Shown here: in pieces, positions 44,132 to 64,000 of the stretch
How the letters are laid out: every line of letters begins with the position of its first letter
Numbering within the stretch: position 1 is the first letter of the stretch
Source: Pseudomonadales bacterium
GTDB taxonomy: Bacteria > Patescibacteriota > Microgenomatia > UBA1400 > PJMF01
Length of the DNA: 64,000 nt
Direction: 5' to 3'
Assembly (NCBI GenBank): GCA_020632235.1
Contig: JACKFY010000004.1
Location: 4,811 to 68,810, forward strand
The notes under the pieces: generated by a model
Databases searched by the model: none
What the model was told of the DNA's origin: nothing
What the model saw: only the letters and a program-made list of their open reading frames with translations
Made by a program: the position numbers and the translations under genes

Positions 44132-44193
44132 AGCGTGAGCGTGATAGATAGGTTTAAACATTCCCCTTGTAAGGGGAAAACTCGAGCGAAAAG

Positions 44194-44268: not shown

Positions 44269-44317
44269 GGGAGGAATGGTCGGTATGACAGGTGGGATTA
44301 GTGGAGAGCATTGACTT

Positions 44318-44357
44318 GCAGTCGTCACTCTGGAGTAAAACGATAGAGTCTGACTGC
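44318..44357. repeat. Conserved stem-loop motif, copy B (GCAGTC-ACTCT-GGAGTAAAACGAT-AGAGT-GACTGC)
   Basis: It shares the 27-nt core CACTCTGGANNNAANCGATAGAGTCT with 15381-15417 and 55343-55382. Confidence 0.55.
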
Positions 44358-44358
44358 C

Positions 44359-45788: not shown

Positions 45789-45809
45789 ACCGATGCCCTA
45801 CGCTACCTA

Positions 45810-46241: not shown

Positions 46242-46293
46242 ATAAACCAGCATAGACTACTGGTTTCCGTCGCGCAACTAGCACCAGAAAAAC

Positions 46294-47699: not shown

Positions 47700-47704
47700 A
47701 AAAA

Positions 47705-47753
47705 CCCCTCACCTTGCTTTCTGGTCCAGTCGGCCAGACCACAAGGTGAGGGG
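47705..47753 (-). terminator. Rho-independent terminator/attenuator after the pilin gene. It is a near-identical inverted copy of the rplT terminator.
   Basis: The minus-strand transcript reads CCCCTCACCTTGTGGTCTGGCCGACTGGACCAGAAAGCAAGGTGAGGGG-TTTTTTT. It differs from 17656-17705 by two nucleotides. Confidence 0.7.
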
Positions 47754-47759
47754 AAGTAA

Positions 47760-48341
47760 CTATGGCAAGCAAATAAGCTCATTGCCATCATCGCAGATCA
47801 TACTTTCTGCAGTTTGCCCTACGTCTCCTGGTAAACCTGCATCACACCGCTCTATAGCTTGCGTCTTAAATGCTTGTGACTGTGGCTCAAAACATACATA
47901 GGTAGCGTCACCTGTGCCACCTTCATTGTACACATAGAGAGGTCGAGCGTCAGGATCACTTACCCTCGTTATAAACGTTGATTTTAGCTCATCTGTGCCA
48001 TCACAGGATGCTCCATCACCACCAGCCAATTTTTCAAGTATGCTACACCCAGCACCATCATCAACATTCTCAATTTCAACAAGAGCTGACACAGGGTTGG
48101 CCGTATCATTTGCATCTTCTAGCCAAGGGTAGTAGCCTTTGAAGGCATTATACCTATCCACAGCACTAATAAGTTGCTCTGCATCAGACTGAGAGCTGGT
48201 GTCACGACCTCTGTTGATCTGCTCGACTGGATTGATAGCTGCCAAGACGGCAACTGCCAAAATACCTAAGATAGAGATCACGATCAAAAGCTCAATCATG
48301 GTAAAACCTGCTTGTTTTCTCAGTTTCTGAAGAAATTTCAT
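47760..48341 (-). CDS. Type IV pilin, candidate major pilin
   Basis: MKFLQKLRKQAGFTMIELLIVISILGILAVAV prepilin motif. It is followed by a strong terminator and is the first pilin after pilB/T/C. Confidence 0.8.
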   Translation of the reverse strand: MKFLQKLRKQAGFTMIELLIVISILGILAVAVLAAINPVEQINRGRDTSSQSDAEQLISAVDRYNAFKGYYPWLEDANDTANPVSALVEIENVDDGAGCSILEKLAGGDGASCDGTDELKSTFITRVSDPDARPLYVYNEGGTGDATYVCFEPQSQAFKTQAIERCDAGLPGDVGQTAESMICDDGNELICLP

Positions 48342-48422
48342 ACTCGTTTCCTTTTGTATTGTTACTAATACATACTTCACTCTACAGCATTCTTCAAGAG
48401 TAATGCAAGAGCTAAAAATAGT

Positions 48423-49625
48423 CTAAAACTGCGAGGTCAGGCTGTAGATAGGCATAATGACTGCAATCACCATCAGCCCCACCCCAATGCCCAGCACGAT
48501 CATGATCATTGGCTCGATAGCAGCAGTCATGTTACGCACTGCCTGCTCACTTTCCGACTCAAAGTATTCAGATACTTTGGTCAAGATCTCGTCAAGCTTG
48601 CCTGTTTCTTCACCCACGCGGATCATCTGGTACAAAATGGGAGGGAAGAGCTCAAATCGCTCAAGAGCGGTACTGAGTGCCACACCCTTTTCTACCTCAT
48701 CTGCCGCTTGCCCCAACGCCTCACGATACAGCACGTTGTTGATGCCTTCCGTTACGATATCAAGTGCTTTGAGCAGTGAAATACCTGCTCCTAACAACAG
48801 CGCAATCGTGCGTGCAAACTCGGTGAGGATAATTTTTTTCATCAAGTCACCAAAAATAGGGAGACGGAGCACTGTCTGGGCTATCAGTCTCTGGCCTGCC
48901 TCGGTATTTTTCCAGCGGGTAAAAAACCCTATTCCTATAGCCAAAAGCGCAAGAAAGATCCATTTATACTGTACTAAAAAGTTGGAAGAGCCAATCAATA
49001 TTTTGGTAGGAAGGGGGAGCTCAGCACCAAAGTCTTCATACATAGCGGTCATCTGCGGGATAACAAAAATCATCATGATAAACCCCACCACTATCATCGC
49101 TATCACCACAATAGCAGGATAGATCATCGCTCCCTTGGTTTTTGAGCGAAATTCATGTGACTTTTCTAGATTGATGGCAAGCCTATCAAGCACCTGGTCC
49201 ATCACACCGCCCGTCTCACCTGCATTTACTAGTTGCACATACAGCCGAGAAAATACTTTTGGATGCTTGCCCAGCGCCTCGCTAAAGGTCATGCCGCCCT
49301 CAACATCTTGCAAAATAGTAGCAATGAGGGCGGCAAACTCACCTTTGTTTTGGCGCACCAAGATAGAAAGCGCACTCGCCAGGGGCAATCCTGCCGTGAT
49401 CATTGTTGAAAGTTGCCTGGTAAAGCGCACCACTTCTGCTGTCTTGATGCCACCACTAATATTTTTCAAGAAAGCAAACGAAGAAGAGGTGAGGGGAGTC
49501 AGCTTGATAAGCAGCAGGCCCCTATTGGTAATCTCAATGGCCGCATGACGCTCTGTCTGGGCTTCTACCTTTCCCTTGACTATGTTGCCAAAGGTATTTT
49601 TGGCAGTGTAGTTAAAAAATGGCAT
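48423..49625 (-). CDS. pilC: Type IV pilus platform protein PilC (GspF family)
   Basis: A 400-aa protein with duplicated GspF domains and three TM helices. Confidence 0.9.
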   Translation of the reverse strand: MPFFNYTAKNTFGNIVKGKVEAQTERHAAIEITNRGLLLIKLTPLTSSSFAFLKNISGGIKTAEVVRFTRQLSTMITAGLPLASALSILVRQNKGEFAALIATILQDVEGGMTFSEALGKHPKVFSRLYVQLVNAGETGGVMDQVLDRLAINLEKSHEFRSKTKGAMIYPAIVVIAMIVVGFIMMIFVIPQMTAMYEDFGAELPLPTKILIGSSNFLVQYKWIFLALLAIGIGFFTRWKNTEAGQRLIAQTVLRLPIFGDLMKKIILTEFARTIALLLGAGISLLKALDIVTEGINNVLYREALGQAADEVEKGVALSTALERFELFPPILYQMIRVGEETGKLDEILTKVSEYFESESEQAVRNMTAAIEPMIMIVLGIGVGLMVIAVIMPIYSLTSQF

Positions 49626-49628
49626 TAC

Positions 49629-50702
49629 CTACTCTTTCACTTGACTTGTTTTGTTAAGCAATCTATCCATATCGTCTTTACGAAATGAGTACTCTTGGGC
49701 AACCAGCGACGAAATACTACCCTGCTGCACTAGTGTCTGCAGGTGGGTTTCCAAAAGCATCATCTGCTTGCTGGCAGACGTCTGGATAACATTATCAATT
49801 TGGTAGGTCTTTGCCTCGCGGATTAAGTTGCGAATAGCAGGCGTTCCCAACATAACTTCGAGGGCTGCAGTACGCTTGCCATTCAAGGTCGGCACCAGCC
49901 GTTGTGACACAATGGCTTGTACAGTAGAGGCAAGCTGCTGGCGCACCTGAGACTGCTGGGCAGCAGGAAAGACATCGATGATACGGTCTATGGTCTGGGC
50001 TGCAGTGGCCGTGTGAAGCGTGGCAAACACCAGGTGGCCCGTTTCTGCCACCGTGATGGCAGAGGCAATTGTTTCAAAATCACGCATTTCGCCCACCAAC
50101 ACCACATCGGGGTCTTCGCGCAGAGCAGATTTGAGTGCAATATCCCACCCGTGAGTATCTTGGGTTATCTCCCGCTGAGAAATAACACTTTTTTGTGGCT
50201 CGTACACAAACTCAATTGGGTCTTCAATGGTCAAGATATGCTCAGCACGCGCATGATTAATCTCGTTGATGATCGCCGCCAAACTGGTCGACTTTCCTTC
50301 ACCCGTAGGGCCAGTGATCAAGATAATACCTTGTTTGTACTGAGTAAAGTCATGAAACACTTTGGGTAGGTGTAACTCTTCGAGTGTCTTTATTCTATTG
50401 GGAATGAGGCGCAAAGCAGCAGAGAGTCCCCCTTGCGACAAATACACATTAACGCGAAATCTTCCCTTATCCAAGTACTGGTAGGCAAAATCAAGCTCTT
50501 TGTTGACCTCCACATAGTCTTTTTGCTCTTGGGTTAACAAAGGGTGAATGAGCGTCTCACTCTGCTTTTCTGTCAAAACAGGTGCCCCATCGACTGGCTT
50601 GAGAACACCCTCTACTCGAATAGTAGGCGGACTCCCAGGCACAATATGAATGTCAGAGCCTTCGCTATCGATCAGTTGTTGGAGTATGTCAAATGTGTTC
50701 AT
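49629..50702 (-). CDS. pilT: Twitching-motility (retraction) ATPase PilT
   Basis: Walker A GPTGEGKSTSL, His box, and the 357-aa length typical of PilT. Confidence 0.85.
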   Translation of the reverse strand: MNTFDILQQLIDSEGSDIHIVPGSPPTIRVEGVLKPVDGAPVLTEKQSETLIHPLLTQEQKDYVEVNKELDFAYQYLDKGRFRVNVYLSQGGLSAALRLIPNRIKTLEELHLPKVFHDFTQYKQGIILITGPTGEGKSTSLAAIINEINHARAEHILTIEDPIEFVYEPQKSVISQREITQDTHGWDIALKSALREDPDVVLVGEMRDFETIASAITVAETGHLVFATLHTATAAQTIDRIIDVFPAAQQSQVRQQLASTVQAIVSQRLVPTLNGKRTAALEVMLGTPAIRNLIREAKTYQIDNVIQTSASKQMMLLETHLQTLVQQGSISSLVAQEYSFRKDDMDRLLNKTSQVKE

Positions 50703-50735
50703 CGTGGGCTTTCTTGCTGTTCTTGATACACCTAT

Positions 50736-52511
50736 CTAAATTTGTGCTACCCTGAGTACTTCCTCTATTGTGGTAATGCCTTCAAGTGCTTTGAGATACC
50801 CGTCTTGCTTCATCAACAACATACCATCTTTTATTGCAAGTTCTTCTAGTTCGCTGGCAGGCTTTTGTTGCATGATACACTTGCCTATCTCTTCGGTAAT
50901 ATTCATGACCTCAAAAATAGCTACTCGACCTTTGTACTCTGGCTCTGTTTCTGGTCGCTCCTTTTTGGCCCGGTACAGTTTAATAGCGTCTGGTGTCACG
51001 TTGTGCTGCTGACACCATAAGCCAAGTCTCTCTCCCAGTACCGAGCGAATGTCATCAACCACTGCTTTCTCTGGTGTGTACTGCTCTGTGTACTCGGGGT
51101 TAATACGTCGTAAAACACGCTGCGCCATGGTCAATGTCATCGAAGACGCAAGTAAAAATGGCTCGGCGCCCATATCCATCAGGCGAGGAATAGCGCCCGC
51201 AGCAGATGAGGTATGAAGGGTCGAGAACACCAAGTGGCCAGTCAGTGAGGCTTGAATAGCCAGCTCTGCTGTTTCACTGTCACGGATCTCTCCTACCATG
51301 ATAATGTTGGGGTCTTGGCGCAAGAACGAGCGCAGGCCAGAGGCAAACGTCAGGCCTGCTTGTGGGTTGGTCTGCACCTGGTTGATACCTACCATTTGGT
51401 ACTCAACAGGGTCTTCAAGCGTCATGATATTCACTTTTGGCGAGTTGATGGTGTGCAAAACAGAGTAGAGTGTGGTCGTTTTTCCAGAACCAGTTGGGCC
51501 GGTCACCAGGATAATGCCGTGCGGCACCTTGATGGCATCTTGTACGTGGTTGAGTGCCAACCCAGTAAGCCCAAGTTGCTCAAGAGACGGCACCGTTGCA
51601 TCTTTTTTCAACAGACGCATTACGATTTTCTCTCCATCAACAGTGGGCAACGTCGAGACGCGAAGGTCAACTTCTTGATCGCCAGCAGTAAAGGTAAACC
51701 TGCCGTCTTGCGGCACGCGCTTTTCATCTATTTTTAAACCAGACAAAATCTTGATGCGTGACACCACCGCCTCGTGCACACTCGCGGGCAGAATAAGTTT
51801 TTCTGCCAGAATGCCATCAATGCGGTAGCGCACTCTCGTTTTTTCTTCTTGTGGCTCGATATGAATGTCAGACGCGCGGGCTTTGATAGCAAACTCTACA
51901 ATGGTCTCGACAATCTTGGTGATTGGTGCCTGACGAATTGTTTCGCCAGACAGTGACGAGAAGTTTTGCTCTTGTTTTTTTGTTTCTTGTATTTGACTGG
52001 TTTGTTCAAGTGCGGCAGAAACTTCATTTGACAAATTTTGAGAGTACCGCTCGGCTATCAAACGCTCTATCTCTGATTTACTTGCATAGTGAGCAAGAAT
52101 GCGAAACCCACTTTTTTGCTCGGCAAAATCGATAGCCAGTACGTCAAGCGGATCAACCATCGCCACCGATAGTTGTTTTTTCTCACCGTCAACAGCAAAC
52201 GGCAGCATCTGGTACTGCTGGGCAACTGACTCGGGTAAAGCCGAAAGCGCCTCTGGCGAAACACCGGTGCTTGCAATCGCCACAAACGGCACGTTGTGAA
52301 AGGTACTCTTGGCTCTGGCGATGTCTTCTTCGCTGGCAAGAGATTTCTCTCTGAGCACATCATCTGGTTTTTTGCCTGTCTGGATCGTTTCAAGCGTAAT
52401 CAAGTTAACGTCATCAGCAGTTATCACGCCCTGTGCAACCAATACATCCAAGATTGAGGAGTAGGCTCCAGGGGCAGCTGGTGAGGATGATTGGGCAGGT
52501 TGATTCATCAC
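50736..52511 (-). CDS. pilB: Type IV pilus assembly ATPase PilB (GspE family)
   Basis: N-terminal GSPII_E_N-like domain, Walker A GPTGSGKTTTL, and a CxxC tetracysteine. Confidence 0.9.
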   Translation of the reverse strand: MMNQPAQSSSPAAPGAYSSILDVLVAQGVITADDVNLITLETIQTGKKPDDVLREKSLASEEDIARAKSTFHNVPFVAIASTGVSPEALSALPESVAQQYQMLPFAVDGEKKQLSVAMVDPLDVLAIDFAEQKSGFRILAHYASKSEIERLIAERYSQNLSNEVSAALEQTSQIQETKKQEQNFSSLSGETIRQAPITKIVETIVEFAIKARASDIHIEPQEEKTRVRYRIDGILAEKLILPASVHEAVVSRIKILSGLKIDEKRVPQDGRFTFTAGDQEVDLRVSTLPTVDGEKIVMRLLKKDATVPSLEQLGLTGLALNHVQDAIKVPHGIILVTGPTGSGKTTTLYSVLHTINSPKVNIMTLEDPVEYQMVGINQVQTNPQAGLTFASGLRSFLRQDPNIIMVGEIRDSETAELAIQASLTGHLVFSTLHTSSAAGAIPRLMDMGAEPFLLASSMTLTMAQRVLRRINPEYTEQYTPEKAVVDDIRSVLGERLGLWCQQHNVTPDAIKLYRAKKERPETEPEYKGRVAIFEVMNITEEIGKCIMQQKPASELEELAIKDGMLLMKQDGYLKALEGITTIEEVLRVAQI

Positions 52512-53300: not shown

Positions 53301-55331
53301 ATGACCGACCAACACACAACAAATCAGTATGGGGCAGGGGACATTAAGGTCTTGGAAGGTCTTGAGCCTGTTCGCAAGCGGCCAGGCATGTACATCGGCT
53401 CAACGGACGCTAGAGGCCTGCACCACCTAGCAAAAGAAATTTTAGACAACGCAGTTGACGAGGCCATCGCTGGATACGGCAAAACTATTACCTTGTACCG
53501 CACGCCCACTACCGATGAGCATCAAAAAAAAGCAGGAAAAGACGTTACTATTGCCGACGAAGCCATCACAGTAGTCGATAGCGGGCGAGGCATTCCTGTT
53601 GATGTGCATCCCCAAACTGGCCTCTCGGCACTCGAAGTAGTGCTGACCAAACTACACGCTGGCGGCAAGTTTGAAGAAACAGCCTACCAAGCCTCTGGAG
53701 GTCTGCATGGCGTTGGCTCTTCGGCAGTCAACGCGCTCTCATCGCTCCTACAAGTGATCGTTAAGCGTGACGGGGCGCTGCATTACCAGCACTACTCACA
53801 GGGCGTGCCGAAAGCTCCTGTCACAACAATTTCAGAGGCAGAGGCACAAGCGCTGTTTCCTCGTGCGGTAGAGCAGTTACTCTCTCATGAAACAGGCACG
53901 CTCATTCAGTTTGTACCAGACCCTACTATTTTCTCGACCACCCAGTTTAACCACAAAACACTCATTGATGTAGTCAAAGACCGTGCCTACCTGATGGCAG
54001 GAATCTACTTTACCTTTGTTGACCAGGTTGAACAAACCGAGGAAGACTACTACTTTGAAGGTGGTATTCGCTCCCTGGTCGAGCACATCAACATGCAGAA
54101 AAAACCCCTCCACGACGTGATGTATACCGAAGGGTTTTGGACAGATGACAGTACAGGTAAAAAAATTGGGGTTGAGGTAGCCCTTCAGTACAACGACTCA
54201 TACAAAGAACGGATGGAGTCGTACGTCAATGTGATTCGCACTCCAGATGGCGGAGCTCACATCAACGGCTTTCGAAACGCTCTGGGCAAAGTGCTGCGCG
54301 ACTATGCTGACAAACATGGGCTGCTCAAAGAAAAAGAGTCATTTGTTGCCGATGACATGCGCGAAGGCATTACTGCCGTGGTGTTTGTCAAGATGCCATC
54401 AAATGACCTCCAGTTTGAGTCACAAACCAAAACAAAGCTTAATAATTCCGAGGCCCAATCAGCTGTGTATCAAATTTTTAAGGATGGCTTTACCACCTTT
54501 TTGGAAGAAAACCCCAGTGCAGGTAAAGCTATTATCGAAAAAATTATGCTCTCGGCACGGGCGCGAATGGCGGCACGGGCTGCCAAAGACGCAGTGATTC
54601 GAAAAGGAGTGTTTGAAGGCAGTTCACTGCCAGGAAAACTCGCCGACTGCCAAAGTAGAAACGCAGCAGAGTCAGAGATCTACATCGTCGAGGGAGACTC
54701 AGCTGGTGGCTCGGCCAAGCAAGGCAGAGATCGTAAGTTTCAAGCTATCTTTCCTCTGCGTGGTAAGATCTTGAACACCGAGAGAGCACGACTAGACAAG
54801 ATTGTTGCCTTTGAAGAGCTCAAAAACCTTGTTATCGCGTTGGGTGCGGGTATTGGTGAGACATTCGACCCAGAAAAATTGCGTTATCATCGCATTATTC
54901 TCATGAATGATGCTGACGTTGATGGTGAGCACATCACGACACTCGGGCTTACCTTTTTCTTTCGCCACTTGCCAGAAGTTGTTGAGCAAGGCTACCTCTA
55001 CATCGCCATGCCACCCCTCTACAAAGTCAGTCACGGCAAAACGGAGCAGTATGCCTACTCAGAGAACGAGCGAGACGAGTATATCGCCCACATTCGCCAG
55101 GGTAATGAGCGGGCAAATATCACCGTCCAGCGTTATAAAGGTCTCGGCGAGATGAACCCCGATCAACTCTGGAACACCACTATGGATCCAGAAACACGCA
55201 TGCTTAAAAAAGTAACCATAGAGGACGCCGAGGCAGCTGACACCATCTTTTCAACCTTGATGGGAGACGACGTAGCACCCAGAAAGCGATTTATCCAAAC
55301 CCACGCGCAACTGGCAAACCTAGATGTATAA
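53301..55331 (+). CDS. gyrB: DNA gyrase subunit B
   Basis: YGAGDIKVLEGLEPVRKRPGMYIGST, GHKL ATPase and TOPRIM motifs. Start chosen at MTDQHTT. Confidence 0.9.
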   Translation: MTDQHTTNQYGAGDIKVLEGLEPVRKRPGMYIGSTDARGLHHLAKEILDNAVDEAIAGYGKTITLYRTPTTDEHQKKAGKDVTIADEAITVVDSGRGIPVDVHPQTGLSALEVVLTKLHAGGKFEETAYQASGGLHGVGSSAVNALSSLLQVIVKRDGALHYQHYSQGVPKAPVTTISEAEAQALFPRAVEQLLSHETGTLIQFVPDPTIFSTTQFNHKTLIDVVKDRAYLMAGIYFTFVDQVEQTEEDYYFEGGIRSLVEHINMQKKPLHDVMYTEGFWTDDSTGKKIGVEVALQYNDSYKERMESYVNVIRTPDGGAHINGFRNALGKVLRDYADKHGLLKEKESFVADDMREGITAVVFVKMPSNDLQFESQTKTKLNNSEAQSAVYQIFKDGFTTFLEENPSAGKAIIEKIMLSARARMAARAAKDAVIRKGVFEGSSLPGKLADCQSRNAAESEIYIVEGDSAGGSAKQGRDRKFQAIFPLRGKILNTERARLDKIVAFEELKNLVIALGAGIGETFDPEKLRYHRIILMNDADVDGEHITTLGLTFFFRHLPEVVEQGYLYIAMPPLYKVSHGKTEQYAYSENERDEYIAHIRQGNERANITVQRYKGLGEMNPDQLWNTTMDPETRMLKKVTIEDAEAADTIFSTLMGDDVAPRKRFIQTHAQLANLDV

Positions 55332-55342
55332 AAATAAAACCC

Positions 55343-55382
55343 GCAGTCTTCACTCTGGACCGAAACGATAGAGTCTGACTGC
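55343..55382. repeat. Conserved stem-loop motif, copy C, between gyrB and ppa
   Basis: GCAGTC-TTC-ACTCT-GGACCGAAACGAT-AGAGT-CT-GACTGC. The flanks are identical to copy B. Confidence 0.55.
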
Positions 55383-55394
55383 AAGAAAGGAACT

Positions 55395-55877
55395 ATGAGC
55401 AACACCGTTACCGTTTTAATCGAGATTCCAGAGGGCTCTCAGGTCAAGTACGAGCTAAATGAGGACACGCACCAAATGGAGGTAGACCGCATCATGCCGG
55501 TCGCGATGGGGTATCCTGTCAACTATGGCTTGATCGATGACACCAAAGGTGAAGATGGAGACGCACTCGACGCACTTGTTTTCTTGGGCGCCCCAGTAGT
55601 ACCAGGGGTGCGCATCAAGTGTAAAGTCATCGGCATGCTCGAAATGGAAGACGAGGCAGGCATCGATCACAAGCTGGTCTGCGTGCCCGCTACCACCAAG
55701 ATTGACCCTGCGTGCGGTGCTTGGGAGTCTTTAGACGATGTGCCAGAGTGGAAAAAAACCCAAATCAGACACTTTTTTGAACACTACAAAGACTTGGAAG
55801 AAGGTAAGTGGGTCAAACTCAATAACTGGCAGGACAGCGCCACTGCACTGGGAGTACTAGCAAAAGGAAGAGTATAA
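55395..55877 (+). CDS. ppa: Inorganic pyrophosphatase (family I)
   Basis: [23 protein letters not shown] matches the active-site region. Confidence 0.9.
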
Positions 55878-55923
55878 CCCTCCATTCTACAACCCACATT
55901 CTCTATTCTACATTCTAAAAACC

Positions 55924-58671
55924 ATGACCGATACACAACCAGAAACACCAGACATTCAAAACCAAGTAGTTGAAGAGACTGAAAGCGTGGTGGGGCAGAT
56001 AGAAGAAACCAAGTACGGCAAGCTCAAACACGTCTCGATCAAGCAAGAGATGGAAAAATCATACCTTGACTACGCGATGAGCGTGATTGTCTCGCGCGCA
56101 CTACCCGATGTTCGTGATGGTTTAAAGCCAGTTCATCGACGCATTTTGTACTCGATGTATAAAAGTGGCATTCACCACACCAGCTCGTACAAAAAATCGG
56201 CTCGTATTGTAGGTGATGTCTTGGGTAAGTACCATCCTCATGGTGACGCGCCTGTATACGGGGCGCTGGTGCGCCTAGCTCAAGACTTTAACATGCGTTA
56301 CCTACTCGTGGATGGCCAGGGCAACTTTGGCTCGATTGATGGCGATAGTCCTGCTGCTATGCGCTATACCGAGGCCAGGCTAGCCAAGATCACTGCCGAA
56401 CTTTTGATAGATATTGACAAAGAAACAGTCCCATTCACTGACAACTTTGACGGCTCGGTCCAAGAGCCAACGGTGTTACCAGCCAAGCTGCCCAACCTAC
56501 TACTCATGGGTTCGGAGGGTATCGCAGTCGGCATGGCTACCAAAATCCCACCCCACAACTTGCATGAAGTCTGTGATGCCATCATTGCCATGCTTGATGC
56601 GGGCGGTGCTATAAAAGAAGAGAAGGGACTCAAGCAAGAGACAAAAACACCAACCAAAGAAGAAGTAGAAACTCAGACAAGTAACGCTACAGGAGCGGTA
56701 CTCTCCAAGGAAATTCAGGCTCAAAACAAAACAATAGATGCGCTGCTTGCCGCCAACCCCCAGACGTTGGCAGGTACATTTGAAACCGACAGCACGATTG
56801 ATGACATCATGACACATGTGCAAGGCCCAGACTTCCCCACAGGGGGCATCATGTACGACTTTAACGCTATCAAAGAAGGGTATCGTACGGGCAAAGGCAG
56901 AGTGGTTATCCGGGCGAAAGCAAGCATTGAAGAAACCAAAAAAGGCGGCTTTCAAATTATCGTGACCGAGTTGCCATTCCAGGTCAACAAAGCTAAGTTA
57001 TTGATGAAAATCGCCGATCTAGTCAAAAACAAAAAAATCCAAGGCATTCGTGATCTAAACGACGACTCAGATAGAAATGGTATGCAGATCACCATTGACC
57101 TCAAGCGTGATGCTCGACCAAAGGTAGTGCTCAACAAACTGTTTCGCTACTCAGAGCTGCAAACATCATTCCCCATGAACATGGTGGCGCTGCGCAGTGA
57201 CGGCACACCACAGCTGATGAACATCAGGCACATCTTGATGGAGTACATCGCTCACAGACAAGCTATCGTGGTGCGTCGTTCACAGTATGAGTTGCGATCT
57301 GCCCGCGACCGAGCACATATCTTGGAAGGGCTCTTGATTGCTCTGGGCAACTTGGACGAGGTGATACAAACCATTCGTGAGTCAGCCGACACTGATGCTG
57401 CCAAAACTGCTCTGATGTCCAAATTTGGCCTCTCTGAGGTACAGTCTCTGGCCATTCTTGAGATGCAACTCAAGCGCCTGGCTGCCCTCGAGCGCAAAAA
57501 AATAGAAGACGAGTACAAAGAGATCCAAACTACCATCAAGTCGCTCATCGCTCTTCTGCAAAACCCTGGGAAGATTCTCTCGGTGATTGGTGACGAGGTG
57601 GCGGGCCTGAAAGAAACTTATGGTGATGAGCGTCGTACCAAGCTCGTCAAGGGCAAAATCGGCGAGTTTAGTGAAGAAGATCTCATCCCCAACGAGCCAG
57701 CGGTGATCACGCTCACCGAGACCGGCTACATCAAGCGCAGCAAACCAAATGCGTTCCGTGTACAGTCGCGCGGTGGTAAAGGCTCAAAAGGCGTGCAGAT
57801 GAAAGACGAAGATGTGGTCAAGGCACTCCTGACTGCCCAAACGCACGACACGCTTTTAATGTTTACCAACCAAGGTCGCGTCTTTAGCATGAAAGCCCAC
57901 GAAATACCCGACGTCAAACGCCAGGCCAAAGGCACAGCTATTGTCAATCTTTTGAGCCTCAAACAAGACGAAACCATTCAGTCACTCCTCATCCTAGACG
58001 AAACAGATGACAAAGACAGCTACATCAGCCTTGCTACCAAACACGGCTTAGTCAAAAAGACTGCAGTTAAGCTGTTTAATAACATTCGCCAAAACGGCAT
58101 TATAGCTATCACTCTCAATGAAGGTGATGAAGTTGTATGGGGCAAACTTTCATCTGGAGAAGACGATATTATGCTCATTACACATGCTGGCAAATCTATA
58201 CGATTTTCCGAAACAGAAGTGAAGTCATCTAACAGAGACACAAAGGGTGTTAAAGGTATTACTCTCAAGAGAGGTGATTATGTAATAGGCGTAGAAGCAC
58301 TGAGCGCTCAAGAAAGCTCGTCCTCAAAATACCAGCTCCTCGTAATTACAGAAAAAGGCCTAGGAAAGCGCACTGCACTTGACCAATACCCTGTACAAAA
58401 AAGATCTGGTGTTGGTGTGAAAGTGTCTACAATCACAAAAAAAACTGGCAATGTTGCATCTGCCAAGCTTGTCTCAAGCACAAAGCACAAAGAAATTGTT
58501 ATTAGTAGTAGAGAAGGGCAAACCATCAAATTGCCACTTACTAAAAAATCTATACCTATTCTCGGTAGAGCCACGCAAGGAGTCATCTTGATGAGACTTA
58601 AAGCTTCTGATGCTGTTTCTGCCGTAGCACTGACGTACAAAAACACTGATGCTGAAAGCGATGATACGTAA
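55924..58671 (+). CDS. gyrA: DNA gyrase subunit A (with a roughly 60-aa insertion in the N-terminal domain)
   Basis: [36 protein letters not shown] and the catalytic Tyr region [11 protein letters not shown]-terminal beta-pinwheel repeats. Confidence 0.9.
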
Positions 58672-59557
58672 AAAACACCCCTCTTCTGAGAGAATAGGAG
58701 AGGCATCAATTTTAATTCAGGCAGCACTGTGGTCATTGTTTCCCATCATTACTGTTCTCTCATATAGTGGGCTGCAACCCATCATATCTTTAGCATGGAC
58801 AACGTTATTTTCATGTTTTTTCTTTTTTTTAGTAATAATTGCTAAACAATCGTGGACAGCGATACGCTCAAAGAAAGTACTGCTGCCACTACTATTCATT
58901 GCACTTTTCAACGGAATAGGATTTTATTTTTTTTACTTTTTAGGATTAACACTCACTTCTCCTGGTAATGCCGCTATTGTAGCGACATTTGAAGTATTCT
59001 TTAGCTTTTTGTTGTTTAATGTACTGCAAAAAGAAGCACTAACTCCATCACATGTTTTAGGAATGATATGTATGGTAATAAGTGCCATAATAATCTTTTT
59101 TCCTACAGATTTATCCCTCCAAAAAGGCGACTTTTTTATCTTACTAGCTGCTGCTGTTGCGCCAATGGGCAATCATTTTCAAAAACAAGTGAGGACTCAT
59201 CTAAAAACTGAGCAAATTCTAGCTTTTAGAACTATAATCTCAGTACCCTTCTTGTTTTTAATGGCTATAATGCTAGGTGAGCAAGTAGTGCTTCCCACGG
59301 GCAACACACTTTTACTTGTGATATTTAGTGGCGTAGTCTTGTTTGGTATCTCAAAAATGCTATGGATAGAAGGTATTTTTAGAATTAGTGTCACCAAGGC
59401 AATCTCTCTTAGCAGTGTTGCTCCAGTACTCACACTCGTTTTTGCCTACCTAATACTCGGAGAAACTCCCACCAAAGTACAGCTGGTAGCAGTACCTCTT
59501 GCCGTAGCTGGAGTACTACTGCTGACACACAATAGAGCTTTAAAGAATAAATACTAA
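58661..59557 (+). CDS. EamA/DMT-superfamily transporter
   Basis: Ten TM segments in two EamA-like halves. Confidence 0.65.
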
Positions 59558-59566
59558 TTGTATAGA

Positions 59567-59821
59567 CTAATCAAAGAGCGCTTTTGAAATTTTTAAAAAA
59601 TGAGAAGTTTTACTATCTTCAGTATTAAGCTTGCTCCTGAGATCTCTTAATCTTTTATCAAGTTCGTGTTCAAAACGATACATTTCACTTTGACACTGTG
59701 CATCCACTGGCCTAGTGCTATGAAAAAATTCACCTCTTATGTAGCTAAAGAACTCACGACACACTACAAGCTTGGGGTAGACTTCCGGAAGTTCACTCCT
59801 CCCAGATTCAGCGCGAGACAA
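59567..59821 (-). CDS. Hypothetical protein (AT-rich accessory block)
   Basis: ORF only. Confidence 0.25.
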   Translation of the reverse strand: MSRAESGRSELPEVYPKLVVCREFFSYIRGEFFHSTRPVDAQCQSEMYRFEHELDKRLRDLRSKLNTEDSKTSHFLKISKALFD

Positions 59822-60040
59822 TTCTTCCTCTATAAGTTCTTGTAGTGATTTTTACAATGCACAGTAATCCATAGAGCTCTTTTCACTTTTTACTACAGTT
59901 AGTGTACCACTTCAATGCTCTAGTAATATTGACAAGATACTGTTGAATCTTCATAGTAGAGAAGTATAAATGAAACAACAGACTCCCTACCTCGTGATGA
60001 TGATATAGAAACAAGAGGAATACAAGATATTCACGAAACT

Positions 60041-60517
60041 ATGCCACCAGTAACTGAAGAGGGAAGTCAAGCAGCAATTGATCTAGTGCAAAGAGCATTG
60101 GACGGCGGAGGCGATCTTCAGTTGCACGCATCATTGGATGGTGAAACCAGACTTGCAAATGGAGAAGACGGAAGTGTAATACTGTTTCTTCCACAAGAGG
60201 TACTTGCTGCTCTTAAAAGAGCTGACGCCAGTGTCAAAATTATAGCTAATGAGCTTCCAGAGAATAGCACTAGCGACATTCCTCAACCAGAAAATCCAAG
60301 TAGTGCTAGAGATCCAATTGTAGATCACTCAAAAGAATTTGCTGAGCTGCGAGAACAACCAAGACCAGGCTGTCTGATTGCAGTATTTAACATCTTTAGA
60401 ACGATGGGCAGACTTAAACTCGCAGAGTGGAAAAATAAAAGAGGATCTAGCAAACATGCGCAGCAAGAAAAGGAAAAGCAAGAAAAGAAAAACTCATACA
60501 GCTTGACGAAATATTAG
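60041..60517 (+). CDS. Hypothetical protein (AT-rich accessory block)
   Basis: ORF only. Confidence 0.3.
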   Translation: MPPVTEEGSQAAIDLVQRALDGGGDLQLHASLDGETRLANGEDGSVILFLPQEVLAALKRADASVKIIANELPENSTSDIPQPENPSSARDPIVDHSKEFAELREQPRPGCLIAVFNIFRTMGRLKLAEWKNKRGSSKHAQQEKEKQEKKNSYSLTKY

Positions 60518-60552
60518 ACAGAAATAAAGACAATACAGAGCTGAGAAATAGA

Positions 60553-62865
60553 ATGCTAGAATCACTAGCAGAATATAATATTCAGCCTATCTACATTGAT
60601 AAACTATTAAACTTTATTGTCACACTAAAAGCTAAAACACAATCTATTTTAGATAGAGAGCTACACAAGAAGCTGCATAAACATATGCAAGAGTCTGGTC
60701 TGGACTCTCAAGACTTGCCACTTGATTTTGAAGATTTTGACCAAGTGATTACACCAATAACACAGGTGCTTGTGGAATTGTTCCCTGACTGGATACAACA
60801 AGAGAACCTTGACCAGCCTACTACCGCGCAGCAGACACAAAAAGATAAAATTAAAGAAAAGCAAGATGCTTTAGAAAGAATTACTGAACCCTATCGTTAT
60901 GACCCAAAGGCTGATGCACGAGCAGAAGCAAGCCGAAATGAAGTCGTGCGCAACCTCAAACAAGGACTATCTGAATATTTAGAAACAGTTGGAGTACACA
61001 GCCAGCTGAAGTTAGAACTACTTTCAATTATTATCTACTTAATGGGTGAGCAGAGAACAATAAACCCACACACGCTATCTGAAGTTCTTAGAGAAAGAAT
61101 TAAAAAATACCAAACAAATGATACACACACTAGTAATAAAGGAGAGCCACCCTCAGCAGACATACAACAACATAGAAGTAGTGAGGATGTCTCAAAGCTG
61201 GTAGGCGCAATCTTGCATTTTGTTAGAAATGCGGCTCCGGGATGGATAGATAACTTGAGCCCTCAACCTGAACAAAGCACTTCTGGCTTAGAAAGTTATA
61301 TTAATCTGCTTGTAGATGAAGGGAAGCTCAAACCATATGAGAGAGAGTTTGCAAAAGACCCGCGTGTACTTGATAGGTTGATGAGTATTTTTGATGGCAC
61401 CACTAACCGCATGAGAGCTCTAAAATCAGCTGCAAAACACGCAGAGTTCTTTGGAAACGACAAGCTAAGATTTATGAGGCTAGTAGCGCTCTTACTCCCA
61501 ATATTACTGCTGTTAGGAGTAGTTACTGATAGAGATAATCAAGTCGATTTTGGAACAATAGGTACCAAAACTGAAGCATTAATAGGACCTCTTCCCCCAG
61601 ATGAAAACACCTCTCCTGAGGAACAACCAAAAACAACTCTACCCACACAAGGAGAAAATAAAACCAATAACGTCCAAGAGCTTACAACTCCCACTGACAC
61701 AGCACCTAATGTAGGATCACAAGAAGCATATGCACTAGCACCTGGAGAAGATGTTATGGGAGTGCTTACCCGTGCTGTAAATGAAGGAAACTCAAGTGAG
61801 AATGCTGGTCTTACTAGCACTGCAGAAGCTGCTGAGTCACTCTCTGAGCAAGAAAAAGATCAATTCATAAACCTACTAGCCCAAATAGATGCTATACGCA
61901 ATAACTGGCCGGTTGATAGAGCAACTGAGCGTCCCCCAGGGTATAAAATCAGCCTTCTCACTGATCACTTACAGTTACTTGCCCGAGCGATCAAGGTGCG
62001 AGGTCAAAATGAGGCGGCAAATGAGCTCATAAATCAAATAATGAGCCCTGACACAACAGAAGATCAACTCAGCGGGATACTGGCATCACTGCAAACACTT
62101 TTTGAAGTAATTGAAGATACAGAAACACACTCCCAGCAAAGTAGTGGAGAATCAACAGCAGAAGTCATGCAGACAGTAGAAAAGCTGCAAGCTATAAGAA
62201 TTGACGTCGACGATACTATCTCTACTAACATTAATGACAATCAGTTTATGATTCTCGTTCAAAAAGGTGCTGCTTCTCACTATGCGGTTGGGGGCAATAC
62301 GGTGATTGTATTGCCAAGTGGTAAATCAATTCCCTTCAGTGATTTCCTGGAAGGCTATAATGGAGTAAATATGACCAATGTTACAATCACTCCTAGCTCT
62401 GATACAGTATCTTCCAATAACCGTACTTTCAAGATTGCTTCAGAAATAGTTATTCCCCAATTTCCCAGCTTGGAAACACTCAATCAATTTCCCAACCTAC
62501 CCCAACTTGTAGAGAAGTTGGAGGAAAAATATGGTTTTGGTAAAATGAGCAACATTATCAAAATAGCTGAGGCGCAAATAGACAGCCACAAACTTAATGA
62601 TAATGAGGCCTCATTTTTATTTCAAATGCTCTTATATTTAAATGAGTCACTAGGAGGAAGAAACGCTAATGATATAGTTTCACACGCAGTTGACATTGCA
62701 AACTTAACAAATGGCGAGACAGATAAAATTAATGACCTACTCAGAAGTGTTTCTAGTTATGAAGAACAGTATGGTGATATGGAATCTCAAGTGTTGACTG
62801 CACTAATAACATTAAAACGCAATCTAAATAATTTAGGGTGGACCGAAGGGGACTCGAACCCCTGA
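60553..62865 (+). CDS. Large hypothetical protein (770 aa) whose 3' end runs 27 nt into the tRNA-Ala gene
   Basis: Long ORF with low GC, one internal hydrophobic segment (LVALLLPILLLLGVV) and no recognised domain. The stop at 62863-62865 lies inside the tRNA at 62839-62912. Confidence 0.45.
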   Translation: MLESLAEYNIQPIYIDKLLNFIVTLKAKTQSILDRELHKKLHKHMQESGLDSQDLPLDFEDFDQVITPITQVLVELFPDWIQQENLDQPTTAQQTQKDKIKEKQDALERITEPYRYDPKADARAEASRNEVVRNLKQGLSEYLETVGVHSQLKLELLSIIIYLMGEQRTINPHTLSEVLRERIKKYQTNDTHTSNKGEPPSADIQQHRSSEDVSKLVGAILHFVRNAAPGWIDNLSPQPEQSTSGLESYINLLVDEGKLKPYEREFAKDPRVLDRLMSIFDGTTNRMRALKSAAKHAEFFGNDKLRFMRLVALLLPILLLLGVVTDRDNQVDFGTIGTKTEALIGPLPPDENTSPEEQPKTTLPTQGENKTNNVQELTTPTDTAPNVGSQEAYALAPGEDVMGVLTRAVNEGNSSENAGLTSTAEAAESLSEQEKDQFINLLAQIDAIRNNWPVDRATERPPGYKISLLTDHLQLLARAIKVRGQNEAANELINQIMSPDTTEDQLSGILASLQTLFEVIEDTETHSQQSSGESTAEVMQTVEKLQAIRIDVDDTISTNINDNQFMILVQKGAASHYAVGGNTVIVLPSGKSIPFSDFLEGYNGVNMTNVTITPSSDTVSSNNRTFKIASEIVIPQFPSLETLNQFPNLPQLVEKLEEKYGFGKMSNIIKIAEAQIDSHKLNDNEASFLFQMLLYLNESLGGRNANDIVSHAVDIANLTNGETDKINDLLRSVSSYEEQYGDMESQVLTALITLKRNLNNLGWTEGDSNP

Positions 62866-62912
62866 CCTCCTGCATGCCATGCAGGCGCTCTAGCCAACTG
62901 AGCTACCGGCCC
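62839..62912 (-). tRNA. tRNA-Ala (anticodon GGC)
   Basis: Reverse-complement cloverleaf. Acceptor GGGCCGG/TCGGTCC with a G3.U70 pair (the alanine identity element), anticodon loop ATGGCAT, T-loop TTCGAGT. Confidence 0.9.
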
Positions 62913-63415
62913 ATTTTAGGTATAGTATACATCAGAATGTAATAAGCTGCGCAGCATTGAGTGAGAGGCAACTCACTGGGCAGACTACAAGATATTTTAT
63001 GTATCTTGTATAGAAATGCTAATGCAGTTTTTGAACACTGATAAACAAAAATCATACAATATAGTAATTTTCACAAAGTTATTTTAGTATGCATACGCAT
63101 TCTTTACATATTAGCATCATCTGTGATACACTGCCAACCTTGCCATAGTGCAAATAAGGCTGGTACAAAAACACTTTTTTTAAGCCTAAATATATATCTG
63201 TATTTCAATAAAGTGCAAAGTGTCTCGTAGTATGAGTATCTATATACTTATACATCCTCTTTTAAGTAAAAGCCTTAGTATGTTGTTGGGGTAGAGCAGA
63301 GAAGAGCAACATAATTTTAATTGATATACAGGTAATTATTGGTATAATAGTAAAATTAGCAGAGTAGTAATTAGACTGCTAAAATCCTATAGTAATTTAA
63401 GATTTTAGAGAGTCA

Positions 63416-64000
63416 TCATGACTTTGAGTGATACGTTTGGTGCACCTTTTTTAATTGAGGCTTTGTAATATGGGTGTAAATTTGAGTAGTAGCTATGTTT
63501 TTGTGACCCAGCATTTCTTGCACATCCCTCAGGCCCGCTCCATTACTCAGTAAGTCGGTAGCAAAGCTATGCCTGAGACCATGGGGGCTAATCTTGATGG
63601 GTAAGTGTGCTTTTCTTGAATACTTATCTACAATTCTTTGCACACTTCTTGCACTGAGCCTCATGCTTTCTCCTGAATCAGTTATTCCTGGCTTCTTACC
63701 ACTAAAGCGAATAAAAACTGGCTGCCAATTATCATCTCTTGCATCAAGCCACTTCTGCAGCCACTTGCAGGCTCTATCACTCAAAAAAACTACACGCTGT
63801 CGTCTACCTTTACCAATAACTCCGAACTCTTTTGTATTAAAATTTAGCTGGTCTCTATTAAGGCTTACCAACTCACTCACTCTCAGACCAGTAGAGAAGA
63901 AGACTTCTAAAATTGCCTTGTCTCTAAGGCCTATCGGCGTACTAAGACTTGGTTGGCTCAGTAGCAGCTCTACTTTTTCAAGGGGAAGATACTGCATGTG
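63416..64000 (-). CDS. Tyrosine recombinase (XerC/XerD/integrase family). Only the C-terminal catalytic domain is in the window (N-terminus beyond 64000).
   Basis: HGLRHSFAT and LGHKNIATTQIYTH match the R..HxxR..Y catalytic tetrad blocks. Confidence 0.8.
   Translation of the reverse strand, partial: HMQYLPLEKVELLLSQPSLSTPIGLRDKAILEVFFSTGLRVSELVSLNRDQLNFNTKEFGVIGKGRRQRVVFLSDRACKWLQKWLDARDDNWQPVFIRFSGKKPGITDSGESMRLSARSVQRIVDKYSRKAHLPIKISPHGLRHSFATDLLSNGAGLRDVQEMLGHKNIATTQIYTHITKPQLKKVHQTYHSKS

Follow-up and report, generated by a model that had tools for sequence, protein, structure and literature searches.

A plastic, integrase-free gene slot between gyrA and tRNA-Ala(GGC) lies within a low-GC tract of a Patescibacteria genome

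We analyzed a 64-kb stretch of DNA (hereafter, the window) from a Patescibacteria (CPR) genome, in which gyrA and a tRNA-Ala(GGC) gene enclose 4.16 kb of cargo, comprising an EamA/DMT transporter gene and the reading frames orf84, orf158, and orf770. The cargo occupies a variable slot on a conserved gyrA, tRNA-Ala, and xer backbone, and we consider it probable, at roughly 0.6, that a lower-GC relative donated the whole segment by double homologous recombination. A preliminary description of the same DNA had viewed the block as an element integrated at a tRNA att site. The features are listed in Table 1.

Table 1. Features of the low-GC tract and adjoining backbone, in window coordinates
Feature	Position	Strand	Basis
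GC3 breakpoint support interval, left edge of low-GC tract	58027..58126		Change-point analysis
gyrA 3' end, last ~190 codons, low GC3; assigned to the putatively imported tract	58099..58671	+	GC3
EamA/DMT-family transporter	58649..59557	+	Pfam EamA E = 5.8e-35, two domains; GC3 0.31
orf84, doubtful gene, 84 aa	59567..59821	-	ORF; no family match
Promoter-like TTGACA-17-CATAGT, 5' of orf158/orf770	59929..59957	+	Consensus match only
orf158, orphan protein, 158 aa	60041..60517	+	ORF; coding-like GC1/2/3
orf770, orphan protein, 770 aa, one predicted membrane crossing	60553..62865	+	ORF
orf770 single predicted transmembrane helix, ~aa 305-325	61465..61527	+	Kyte-Doolittle
orf770 strain-variable 3' third	62035..62780	+	Window versus contig L081
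Antisense overlap of orf770 3' end and tRNA 3' end, 27 nt	62839..62865		Rfam boundaries
tRNA-Ala(GGC), intact, G3:U70 pair, conserved backbone	62839..62912	-	Rfam 63.5 bits; ARAGORN 62836-62913
AT-rich spacer from tRNA-Ala to xer, 502 nt, ~31% GC	62914..63415		Sequence composition
Degenerate second palindrome copy	63111..63137		Sequence search
Palindrome TTAGCAG-N13-CTGCTAA, 27 bp, 34 nt from xer stop	63356..63382		Conserved in clade
Xer-type tyrosine recombinase, C-terminal 193 aa, cut by window end	63416..64000	-	Pfam Phage_integrase E = 4.7e-42

The low-GC tract begins within gyrA

A composition scan of the window showed a drop in GC content already at 58.0 to 58.5 kb, and change-point analysis placed a switch in GC3, from 0.55 on the left to 0.31 on the right, at about nt 58099 (log-likelihood ratio of 18.6, against 6.1 at most in permutations; Fisher p = 1.3e-9). 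Because this change point lies inside gyrA, the 3' end of that gene and the EamA/DMT transporter belong to the block as well; the AT-richness previously reported from about 59.56 kb is genuine, but it sets in at 58.1 kb. From there, the tract extends over the gyrA 3' end, the transporter, orf84, orf158, orf770, tRNA-Ala(GGC), and the spacer, and it reaches the right end of the window within the Xer fragment. The cargo has a GC3 of 0.30 to 0.32, compared with 0.49 ± 0.08 (sd) for the backbone, and the Xer fragment, at 0.39, is also low by this measure; hence, the block does not end at the tRNA, as had been thought. None of the gyrA genes of the six relatives compared contains a similar switch.

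An abrupt change of composition within a conserved gene is a typical place for an assembly mis-join, through which a low-GC block could have been attached to a different genome. Such a chimera is scarcely credible here: an independent contig (L082; Logan, SRR12358675) corresponds to window positions 56109-61113 at 99.98% identity and crosses the gyrA junction, another (L081; SRR28385528) covers positions 59340-62882, and gyrA is full length with an unbroken reading frame.

A conserved backbone encloses a plastic slot

The arrangement gyrA→ ←tRNA-Ala(GGC) ←xer is kept in more than 20 related Patescibacteria loci (L001, L002, and L022, plus at least 20 distinct metagenomic loci), the comparison covering a family-level clade with approximately 70% GyrA identity. 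In six relatives, one of them represented by a contig with the tRNA and without xer, the gyrA stop lies just 0 to 14 nt from the tRNA 3' end. More than 20 relatives have a filled slot, with 0.2 to 6.2 kb between the 2 genes, and the products encoded there include a two-component system together with a P-type ATPase, enzymes of the mevalonate pathway, an AAA/DUF4143 ATPase, a protein with a DnaJ domain, and hypothetical proteins; these genes are unrelated and of housekeeping type, and no integrase is found among them. The interval that separates the gyrA stop from the tRNA is a plastic slot, empty in some genomes and occupied by unrelated genes in others.

The recombinase at the right end of the window, correctly recognized earlier as a partial XerC/D-family protein encoded on the minus strand, has XerC and XerD as its best NCBIfam matches (~194 bits each), and its translation displays the R...K...HxxR...H...Y residues. 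Across the more than 20 loci, xer retains its position and orientation beside tRNA-Ala and gyrA, and its identity to the window copy (64% to 77%) is on par with that of gyrA and gyrB. Since synteny is kept in the relatives, no slot has an integrase, and neither the window nor the relatives contain a second tRNA 3' end, Xer is a conserved chromosomal neighbor, that is, the resident recombinase rather than the integrase of an island. This agrees with the fallback offered in the preliminary description, a chromosomal Xer with the island to its left.

The cargo is lineage-unique and consists mostly of orphans

The transporter gene overlaps the end of gyrA by 23 nt (11 nt if the NCBI start is used). 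Its product has a best non-self homologue that is 53% identical, and the named matches are from Patescibacteria; the closest homologue has another genomic setting, behind a PNPase-type gene (RNase_PH/KH/S1 domains), and an EamA transporter was found downstream of gyrA in 0 of 165 loci.

The 3 hypothetical proteins of 84, 158, and 770 aa are, as first described, encoded by open reading frames and devoid of recognizable domains, with no significant match in Pfam, PHROGs, NCBIfam, PADLOC, or PDB sequences, but orf84 is doubtful as a gene, its length being within chance (84% of shuffles yield an open frame at least as long); its sequence is the same in L081 and L082. An open frame of the length of orf158 occurs in 2% of shuffles and its GC1/2/3 pattern is that of a typical coding sequence; orf158 is probably a real gene, for which a search among 5.8 billion proteins returned only itself (NCBI hypothetical protein H6774_04530). 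That orf770 is a genuine reading frame is certain (chance of approximately 1.5e-23). The remote-homology searches and structure prediction proposed for its product yielded neither a relative nor a usable model: 5.8 billion proteins, as well as 1.84 billion representatives scanned in full with HMMER, contained no homologue other than its own truncated copy, JGI metagenomes and IMG/VR contained no relative, and AlphaFold2 reached a pLDDT of 39 over the full length and 44 over the C-terminal region. The cargo of the window is absent from every relative examined, and the block is lineage-unique, mostly orphan cargo.

The Kyte-Doolittle profile of the orf770 protein peaks at 2.46 at aa 307-325, every other scanning window reaching at most 1.6, and the predicted helix is preceded by K/R and followed by D residues, an N-in/C-out charge bias. 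This single helix and its charge bias hint at the surface protein or effector suggested earlier, and our guess would be an operon of orf158 and orf770 that encodes a membrane-anchored, extracytoplasmic, and fast-changing protein.

Strain variation was apparent in orf770. A sister strain carries a nonsense allele (Q495*), and the window and L081 differ at approximately 28 positions per 848 nt in the 3' third, compared with 5 per 2695 nt upstream (Fisher p = 2e-13). The codon changes in this third are 24 nonsynonymous and 3 synonymous (pN/pS of ~3), and a 39-nt patch within it, at 62146-62184, has been replaced.

The slot lacks the signature of tRNA-targeted integration

The 770-aa reading frame does terminate inside the 3' end of tRNA-Ala, as noted initially, with its stop codon (62863-62865) 27 nt within the gene as delimited by Rfam, or 30 nt as delimited by ARAGORN. 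This overrun had been taken as a hallmark of an att site, but because the gyrA stops of the six relatives with an empty slot also abut the tRNA, a plus-strand reading frame tight against it is the local norm. A direct repeat matching the 3' end of the tRNA, which was to be sought near 59.5 kb, occurs nowhere in the window and is lacking in 14 relatives as well; local alignment of the tRNA against positions 55000-62830 gave scores no better than those of shuffled queries, and the block contains no recombinase or mobility gene. These results do not support the proposed element at a tRNA att site; the cargo, which is no autonomous integrative element, sits in an integrase-less variable slot. As evidence against its own proposal, the preliminary description had named relatives with the same genes at similar GC content and no att repeat: the repeat is indeed missing, but the cargo is not shared and its GC content is atypical.

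A genomic island in the 3' end of tRNA-Ala(GGC) might have decayed, losing its integrase while the distal att repeat eroded. The cargo lies exactly 3' of a tRNA, the classic integrase target, has a low GC3, is missing from all relatives, and consists of orphans, and the slot is repeatedly occupied in relatives. We nonetheless judge a decayed island quite improbable. Besides the missing att repeat, in both the window and the 14 relatives, integrase, phage, and conjugation genes are absent from every version of the slot, and the odd composition spreads into gyrA and over the tRNA and xer, which insertion at a tRNA site would not bring about. Furthermore, the gyrA breakpoint is intragenic, the cargo reading frames overlap both backbone genes, leaving no noncoding junction, and the tRNA stems, whose changes with respect to relatives are compensated, are co-adapted and bear no sign of a chimeric tRNA.

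Beyond the tRNA, the AT-rich spacer of about 500 nt was described accurately; relatives are not alignable across it save for short motifs. A 27-bp palindrome is located on both sides of xer throughout the clade.

Capture of the cargo by the adjacent Xer-like recombinase at these conserved palindromes, in the manner of IMEX elements or dif modules, would account for cargo without an integrase of its own, and in addition to the palindromes flanking xer clade-wide, a copy resides within the slot in 2 relatives. Such capture is, however, very unlikely: no copy is present in window positions 1-63110, left boundary included, with up to 2 mismatches; copies in the same genome differ in their central regions and thus cannot be partners for a tyrosine recombinase; the gyrA-side site is missing in most filled slots; and there is no GC-skew switch at the tRNA-Ala/xer locus.

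A lower-GC relative as the probable source of the segment

Because the cargo belongs to a single uninterrupted low-GC3 tract with a sharp breakpoint in gyrA, we infer that the segment was imported as a whole. The donor would have been a lower-GC relative with the same gyrA/tRNA-Ala/xer backbone, and its segment, stretching from the gyrA 3' end over the cargo, tRNA, and spacer into xer, of which it includes at least the 3' half, would have entered as one piece through a double crossover in the flanking conserved genes, an MGE-independent "hotspot" route. The GC content of the relatives (36% to 40%) fits the composition of the tract, making them possible donors; the best match of the GyrA C-terminal part (70% to 71%) is no better than that of the N-terminal part and singles out no donor, which counts against the import. 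Type IV pilus genes (for PilB/PilT/PilC-like proteins and a pilin-like protein) are located 6 to 15 kb upstream, and CPR bacteria use type IV pilus-type systems for DNA uptake. The double crossover is half observed because its right-hand breakpoint falls beyond the window. With a GC3 of ~0.3 in the donor and ~0.55 in the recipient, nucleotide identity in the flanks would be low and classical homologous recombination inefficient.

The orphans without homologues could also have arisen or diverged in situ. Extended to the entire block, an origin without horizontal transfer would have the cargo born de novo or evolving fast in place, with local mutational or selective relaxation lowering its GC content. 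The lack of homologues of orf158 (5.8 billion proteins) and orf770 (5.8 and 1.84 billion) fits such an origin, as do the nonsense allele in one strain and the pN/pS of ~3 in the orf770 3' third, which suggest weak constraint. We regard it as unlikely, given that the sharp GC3 switch lies inside the essential gyrA and that EamA, the tRNA flank, and xer are affected too; relaxed selection on orphans cannot explain the composition of gyrA synonymous sites, and the EamA transporter is a normal member of a conserved family with homologues in other Patescibacteria. Import of the whole segment from a lower-GC relative is the reading that we prefer.

Comparison with known systems

The block resembles tRNA-integrated islands (P4-type integrase islands, ICEs, and IMEs) in its location at a tRNA 3' end, atypical GC content, strain- or lineage-specific spread, and cargo without assigned function. 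It differs from them in having no integrase of its own, att direct repeats, or mobility genes, and in that its odd composition extends past the tRNA on one side and into an essential gene on the other.

The window Xer shares with the XerC/XerD dimer resolution recombinases the catalytic domain, the motif residues, and a stably kept chromosomal position, and its orthologues align over their whole length with the XerC and XerD profiles. On the other hand, these orthologues score 241 to 245 bits, short of the NCBIfam equivalog cut-offs (330 to 335), and are equidistant from XerC and XerD, and no dif site was found. In the single-recombinase systems XerS/difSL and XerH/difH, the site adjoins the recombinase gene, and a conserved 27-bp palindrome (consensus with 10-nt arms and a 7-nt center) likewise lies directly beside the recombinase gene here. 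Unlike in those systems, several copies with dissimilar centers are present per locus, the outer rather than the inner arm positions are conserved, and the palindrome does not resemble known dif sites in sequence and lies away from a skew switch.

MGE-independent hotspots (2017, PMC5635113) differ in being defined within species, whereas our comparison spans a family-level clade (~70% GyrA identity), and the signal here is compositional rather than phylogenetic, with one crossover observed. The window shares with them a short core-gene interval whose gene content differs strongly among relatives, free of integrases and mobile elements, with a recombination-type breakpoint in a flanking core gene and a tRNA at the spot.

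Organization of the gyrA–tRNA-Ala–xer region

The last 8 kb of the window hold gyrA, four reading frames that we call the cargo (an EamA/DMT transporter gene, orf84, orf158, and orf770), a tRNA-Ala(GGC) gene, and the C-terminal part of a tyrosine recombinase gene, xer. The slot, that is, the interval between the gyrA stop codon and the 3′ end of the tRNA gene, measures 4164 nt. The cargo directly adjoins this 3′ end, overlapping it by 27 nt; the preliminary description had placed the orf770 stop codon 27 nt within the tRNA gene, and the Rfam boundaries confirm this. Its statement that the products of orf84, orf158, and orf770 have no recognizable domains also holds, with no significant match in Pfam, PHROGs, NCBIfam, PADLOC, or PDB sequences, and Rfam detected no RNA family in the region besides tRNA-Ala.

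Features of the last 8 kb of the window
Feature	Position	Strand	Remarks
gyrA	55924-58671	plus	
EamA/DMT transporter	58649-59557	plus	Pfam E = 5.8e-35
orf84	59567-59821	minus	84 aa
orf158	60041-60517	plus	158 aa
orf770	60553-62865	plus	770 aa
tRNA-Ala(GGC)	62839-62912 (Rfam); 62836-62913 (ARAGORN)	minus	63.5 bits (Rfam)
tRNA–xer spacer			502 nt; ~31% GC
Tyrosine recombinase (xer)	63416 to window end	minus	C-terminal 193 residues; Pfam Phage_integrase PF00589, E = 4.7e-42

GyrA assigns the window to the Patescibacteria (CPR), the nearest genomes including “Patescibacteria group bacterium BroJett025” and “Candidatus Pacebacteria bacterium CG2_30_36_39” (GyrA identity 66-70%). The NCBI label “Pseudomonadales bacterium” (protein H6774_04530) is evidently wrong taxonomically. 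A number of related binned MAGs, among them L002, L005, and L007, also carry a Pseudomonadales or Gammaproteobacteria label, while their GyrA, gene content, and neighbors are those of Patescibacteria.

The 302-aa EamA protein contains two Pfam EamA stretches, an arrangement that fits the EamA/DMT family, whose members have two EamA domains, some 10 transmembrane segments, and a length of about 300 aa; the same domain occurs in 87 homologues. Its best non-self homologue is 53% identical and lies in a different genomic context, and the matches with a named source come from Patescibacteria. The protein is, as judged from its sequence, an ordinary DMT transporter. A terminator-like hairpin followed by a T-run (58680-58703, plus strand) begins 9 nt past the gyrA stop codon and falls within the first ~18 codons of the EamA frame, so that either the true EamA start or regulation by read-through is uncertain.

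A vertically conserved backbone with a chromosomal Xer

In the related contigs L001, L002, and L022, gyrA is followed by tRNA-Ala(GGC) and then xer, both encoded on the minus strand, and these xer copies share 71-72% identity with the window fragment; the related contig L003 carries the tRNA, and xer is absent within its length. A second scan with the GyrA C-terminal domain as query added 80 metagenomic loci. The same backbone was found in at least 20 distinct metagenomic loci with GyrA identity of at least 59%; in more distant genomes (GyrA identity 52-55%), xer lies beside gyrA without the tRNA. Altogether, more than 30 loci, with GyrA identities between 52 and 72%, have xer adjoining gyrA, which points to a stable, vertically inherited chromosomal position.

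The tyrosine-recombinase catalytic residues R-K-H-R-H/W-Y are visible in the translation of the window copy, which is cut by the window end and scores 194 bits. Full-length orthologues cover the XerC and XerD profiles from one end to the other and score 241-245 bits against them, equidistant from the two and under the NCBIfam equivalog cut-offs of 330-335 bits. The recombinase is accordingly a predicted Xer-type chromosomal enzyme that is not strictly classifiable as XerC or XerD. No dif-like site was recognized at the locus, and the GC skew showed no change of sign in 13 relatives. As a fallback, the preliminary description had proposed a chromosomal Xer with the island lying to its left, and this proves correct, xer being a vertically conserved neighbor.

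The slot turns over among relatives without mobile-element genes

The slot varies strongly in size. The distance from the gyrA stop codon to the tRNA 3′ end is 0, 4, 6, 9, 11, and 14 nt in six relatives; in others, with the GyrA alignment end as the starting point, the gap is between 51 nt and 6.2 kb long. Slots of 0.2-6.2 kb hold genes unrelated to one another: L110 has genes for a response regulator, a histidine kinase, and a P-type ATPase; L103, for a GHMP kinase together with a diphosphomevalonate decarboxylase; L100, for an AAA/DUF4143 ATPase; L097, for a DnaJ-domain protein; and the remainder, for assorted hypothetical proteins. No relative's filling includes an integrase, and no repeat of the tRNA 3′ end rose above shuffled controls in the slots of 14 relatives. 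The slot is therefore bounded by core genes and turns over in gene content among relatives, free of integrase, transposase, or other mobile element. Homologues of EamA, orf84, orf158, and orf770 are missing from the relatives' slots; the preliminary description had suggested a comparison with relatives lacking the block, and these relatives do lack it.

The response regulator–histidine kinase–P-type ATPase cassette stands directly 3′ of gyrA both in L110 (11185-14927), inside the slot, and in L007 (12725-16467), with no tRNA or xer nearby. Since the two contexts differ, either the cassette or the backbone has been rearranged.

The proposed integration at the tRNA gene

The preliminary description had interpreted the AT-rich block as an element integrated at a tRNA att site, given the overlap of orf770 with the tRNA gene. 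Searches of Pfam, PHROGs, and NCBIfam revealed no recombinase between 58672 and 62835; the sole recombinase lies 5′ of the tRNA and keeps its synteny in over 20 relatives. A direct repeat of the tRNA 3′ end, which the preliminary description suggested seeking near 59.5 kb, is absent: a repeat finder detected none in the window, 29-mer and 16-mer tRNA patterns with up to 3 mismatches matched only the tRNA itself in the window, and Smith-Waterman alignment of the tRNA with 55000-62830 scored no better than shuffled queries. Both ends of the cargo are coding, with EamA overlapping the gyrA stop codon and orf770 overlapping the tRNA, and hence there is no non-coding junction to house an att site. 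The tRNA-Ala has the G3:U70 pair, and where its stems differ from those of relatives, the two strands have changed in a compensating way, so that it bears no sign of a chimera produced by att recombination. Integration at the tRNA is thus unsupported, the block having neither its own integrase nor an att repeat, and its atypical composition spilling past the slot (see below). The most fitting reading of the overlap of orf770 with the tRNA is an extreme form of the close packing that relatives show at this tRNA.

A low-GC tract that begins inside gyrA

The GC content falls from a window mean of ~47% to ~39% in the last 6 kb. The AT-rich region had been described as starting at about 59.56 kb, but GC is already falling near 58.0 kb. 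Third-position GC (GC3) is ~0.49 in the backbone (sd 0.08, 60-codon windows), 0.30-0.32 in EamA, orf84, orf158, and orf770, and 0.39 in the Xer fragment. Within gyrA itself, GC3 drops from 0.55 to 0.31, with a maximum-likelihood change point at nt 58099 (support interval 58027-58126; log-likelihood ratio 18.6 vs a permutation maximum of 6.1; Fisher p = 1.3e-9), and no such switch was found in gyrA of the six relatives tested. An assembly artefact at the gyrA junction is ruled out by L082, a contig from an independent run (SRR12358675) that reproduces window 56109-61113 across the junction with one mismatch. The atypical tract is therefore not confined to the slot: it spans the gyrA interior, the cargo, the tRNA, and the spacer and continues into xer, its right edge lying past the window end.

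A second low-GC3 patch (38449-40198) comprises a 409-aa ORF (GC3 0.29), with a Peptidase_M54 match below threshold, and a 167-aa ORF (GC3 0.20), directly followed by genes for a 1070-aa protein and for a pilin-like protein bearing an N_methyl motif. This segment, too, may have been imported.

The import of the cargo by homologous recombination has, in our estimate, about even odds. One crossover would have left the breakpoint inside gyrA, and the second would lie outside the window. The composition of the tract (GC3 ~0.31) resembles that of the sampled relatives (36-40% GC). As caveats, the identity ranks of the left side (gyrB, gyrA 5′) and the right side (gyrA 3′, xer) show no more than weak incongruence, a donor so different at synonymous sites would recombine inefficiently, and no donor was found, the C-terminal segment of GyrA being at most 70-71% identical to any sampled sequence, metagenomes included. 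CPR bacteria use type IV pilus-type systems for DNA uptake, and the type IV pilus genes just upstream may be relevant here. These genes (43392-52511) encode two T2SSE ATPases (PilB/PilT-like), a T2SSF platform protein, and a pilin-like protein, and are followed downstream by a DNA polymerase III delta′-like gene, gyrB, an inorganic pyrophosphatase gene, and gyrA.

orf770 and its strain variation

The reading frame of orf770 is real: at this composition, 770 open codons would arise by chance with a probability of ~1.5e-23, and shuffled sequences reach at most 189 codons. An open frame as long as orf158 arises in 2% of shuffles, so that orf158 is probably a real gene; the length of orf84 is no greater than that of chance ORFs. 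Both longer frames are orphans in the data searched. For orf158, the only match was itself, and for orf770, a word-indexed search of 5.8 billion proteins and a full HMMER scan of 1.84 billion representatives returned nothing beyond its own truncated copy, with no relative in JGI metagenome contigs or IMG/VR.

The predicted orf770 product has an N-terminal portion of ~300 aa that is largely helical in a low-confidence model, a hydrophobic helix at ~aa 305-325 preceded by K/R and followed by D residues, a T/P/E-rich linker (~aa 324-400), and an acidic C-terminal part of ~370 aa, a layout from which we infer a putative N-in/C-out topology. AlphaFold2 run without an alignment reached a pLDDT of 39 on the full-length protein and of 44 on residues 400-770, values at which fold matches would be meaningless. 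An internal duplication seemed plausible by eye; its alignment scores were not above those of shuffles.

Contig L081 (SRR28385528), from a sister strain, matches 59340-62882 at 99.1% identity, with 5 differences over the first 2695 nt compared with ~28 over the final 848 nt (Fisher p = 2e-13; 4e-6 without the 62146-62184 patch). The clustered differences all fall within the 3′ third of orf770 (62035-62780, codons 495-743) and amount to 24 non-synonymous and 3 synonymous codon changes. pN/pS is about 2.8-3.9 there vs 0.6 upstream, a very uncertain ratio resting on only 1-2 synonymous changes. In L081, a C-to-T change converts codon 495 into a stop (Q495*), and a 39-nt stretch (62146-62184) is replaced; of the 14 substitutions that lie elsewhere, 8 change G to A on the coding strand. 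In this one pairwise comparison, the variation could stem from diversifying selection acting on an exposed domain, from import of a divergent allele, or from the decay of a gene that is dispensable. DGR-type mutagenesis was considered and set aside, there being no template repeat in the window and the variation spanning ~750 nt.

A conserved 27-bp palindrome around xer

The tRNA–xer spacers of relatives cannot be aligned apart from the tRNA, and they share a conserved 27-bp palindrome, TTAGCAG-N13-CTGCTAA (consensus TTAGCAGTCT-N7-AGACTGCTAA). In the window, it occupies 63356-63382, 34 nt from the xer stop codon, with a degenerate copy at 63111-63137. In about 433 kb of DNA from the clade, palindromes with exact arms occur at 17 distinct sites in 15 loci; nearly all of them lie directly downstream of the xer stop codon, and often a further copy stands directly upstream of the xer start. 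The palindrome brackets xer across the clade (contigs compared: L001, L002, L003, L022, and L090-L116). L001 and L002 carry one-mismatch copies some 0.2-0.3 kb upstream of gyrB, as does L090 at the corresponding position.

The palindrome looks like a candidate binding site for a dimeric protein. An RNA hairpin or terminator is unlikely, as the variation in the inner arm positions and in the centre shows no covariation. The dif, inverton, and cassette readings were rejected in view of its multiple copies, of centres that differ between copies of the same genome (which rules the copies out as partners for a tyrosine recombinase), and of the GC skew, which has no sign change at the locus in 13 relatives and makes a terminus dif unlikely.

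Other spacer features were recorded. A 30-nt palindrome, CTAAAATCCTA-N8-TAAGATTTTAG (63379-63408), immediately past the xer stop codon is marginally unusual (p ~0.04 vs shuffles) and is not palindromic in relatives, and was rejected as dif. Its 12-mer TAAAATCCTATA (63380-63391) occurs once each in L001 and L002, in the tRNA–xer spacer, and its first 10 nt also in that of L094. A sigma70-type promoter close to consensus (TTGATA-16-TATAAT, preceded by TG; 63321-63348, plus strand) points antisense into the 3′ end of xer, and several relatives carry the same TTGATATA box on the opposite strand, directed at the tRNA. In L086, L087, and L089, tRNA-Ala(GGC) is inverted to the plus strand between gyrA and xer (10947-11021 in L086) with a palindrome copy upstream, implying that the tRNA and the site were flipped as a unit in one lineage.

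Interpretation and comparison with known systems

We consider the cargo to be a non-mobile, lineage-specific filler of a variable slot next to a chromosomal Xer, with a probability of roughly 80%. Such a cargo, specific to one lineage, made up largely of orphans, and sitting in a variable slot that lacks an integrase, is a real feature of an ordinary kind. The locus urges caution in island calling, because a low-GC orphan block beside a tRNA and a nearby tyrosine recombinase need not be an integrative element. In this case, both tRNA and recombinase are vertically conserved, and the slot turns over without mobile-element machinery. The gyrA breakpoint may be a footprint of import by homologous recombination in CPR bacteria, which have tiny genomes, DNA-uptake-type pili, and poorly documented gene flow. 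The orphan orf770 membrane protein, with its strain-variable outer part and nonsense allele, and the clade-wide xer palindrome are leads rather than results.

A literature search returned nothing relevant on CPR genomic islands at tRNAs. Like a tRNA-integrated genomic island, the cargo sits at a tRNA 3′ end, but it differs from one in the lack of its own integrase and of attL/attR direct repeats and in an atypical composition not limited to the slot. Unlike the cargo of IMEX or dif modules, it is not flanked by palindromes, no copy with up to 2 mismatches lying left of the tRNA in the window. A far bolder proposal would make the gyrA|tRNA-Ala–xer junction a dedicated gene-capture platform, at which the resident Xer or another palindrome-binding protein promotes integrase-less cargo turnover and orf770 is a captured, rapidly diversifying episymbiont surface protein; such a platform would be a chromosomal analogue of dif modules or integron platforms, and we regard it as very improbable. 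The closest parallel to a non-mobile filler of this kind is offered by MGE-free hotspots (Oliveira et al. 2017, PMC5635113), with which the locus shares conserved flanks, high cargo turnover, and no mobile-element genes.
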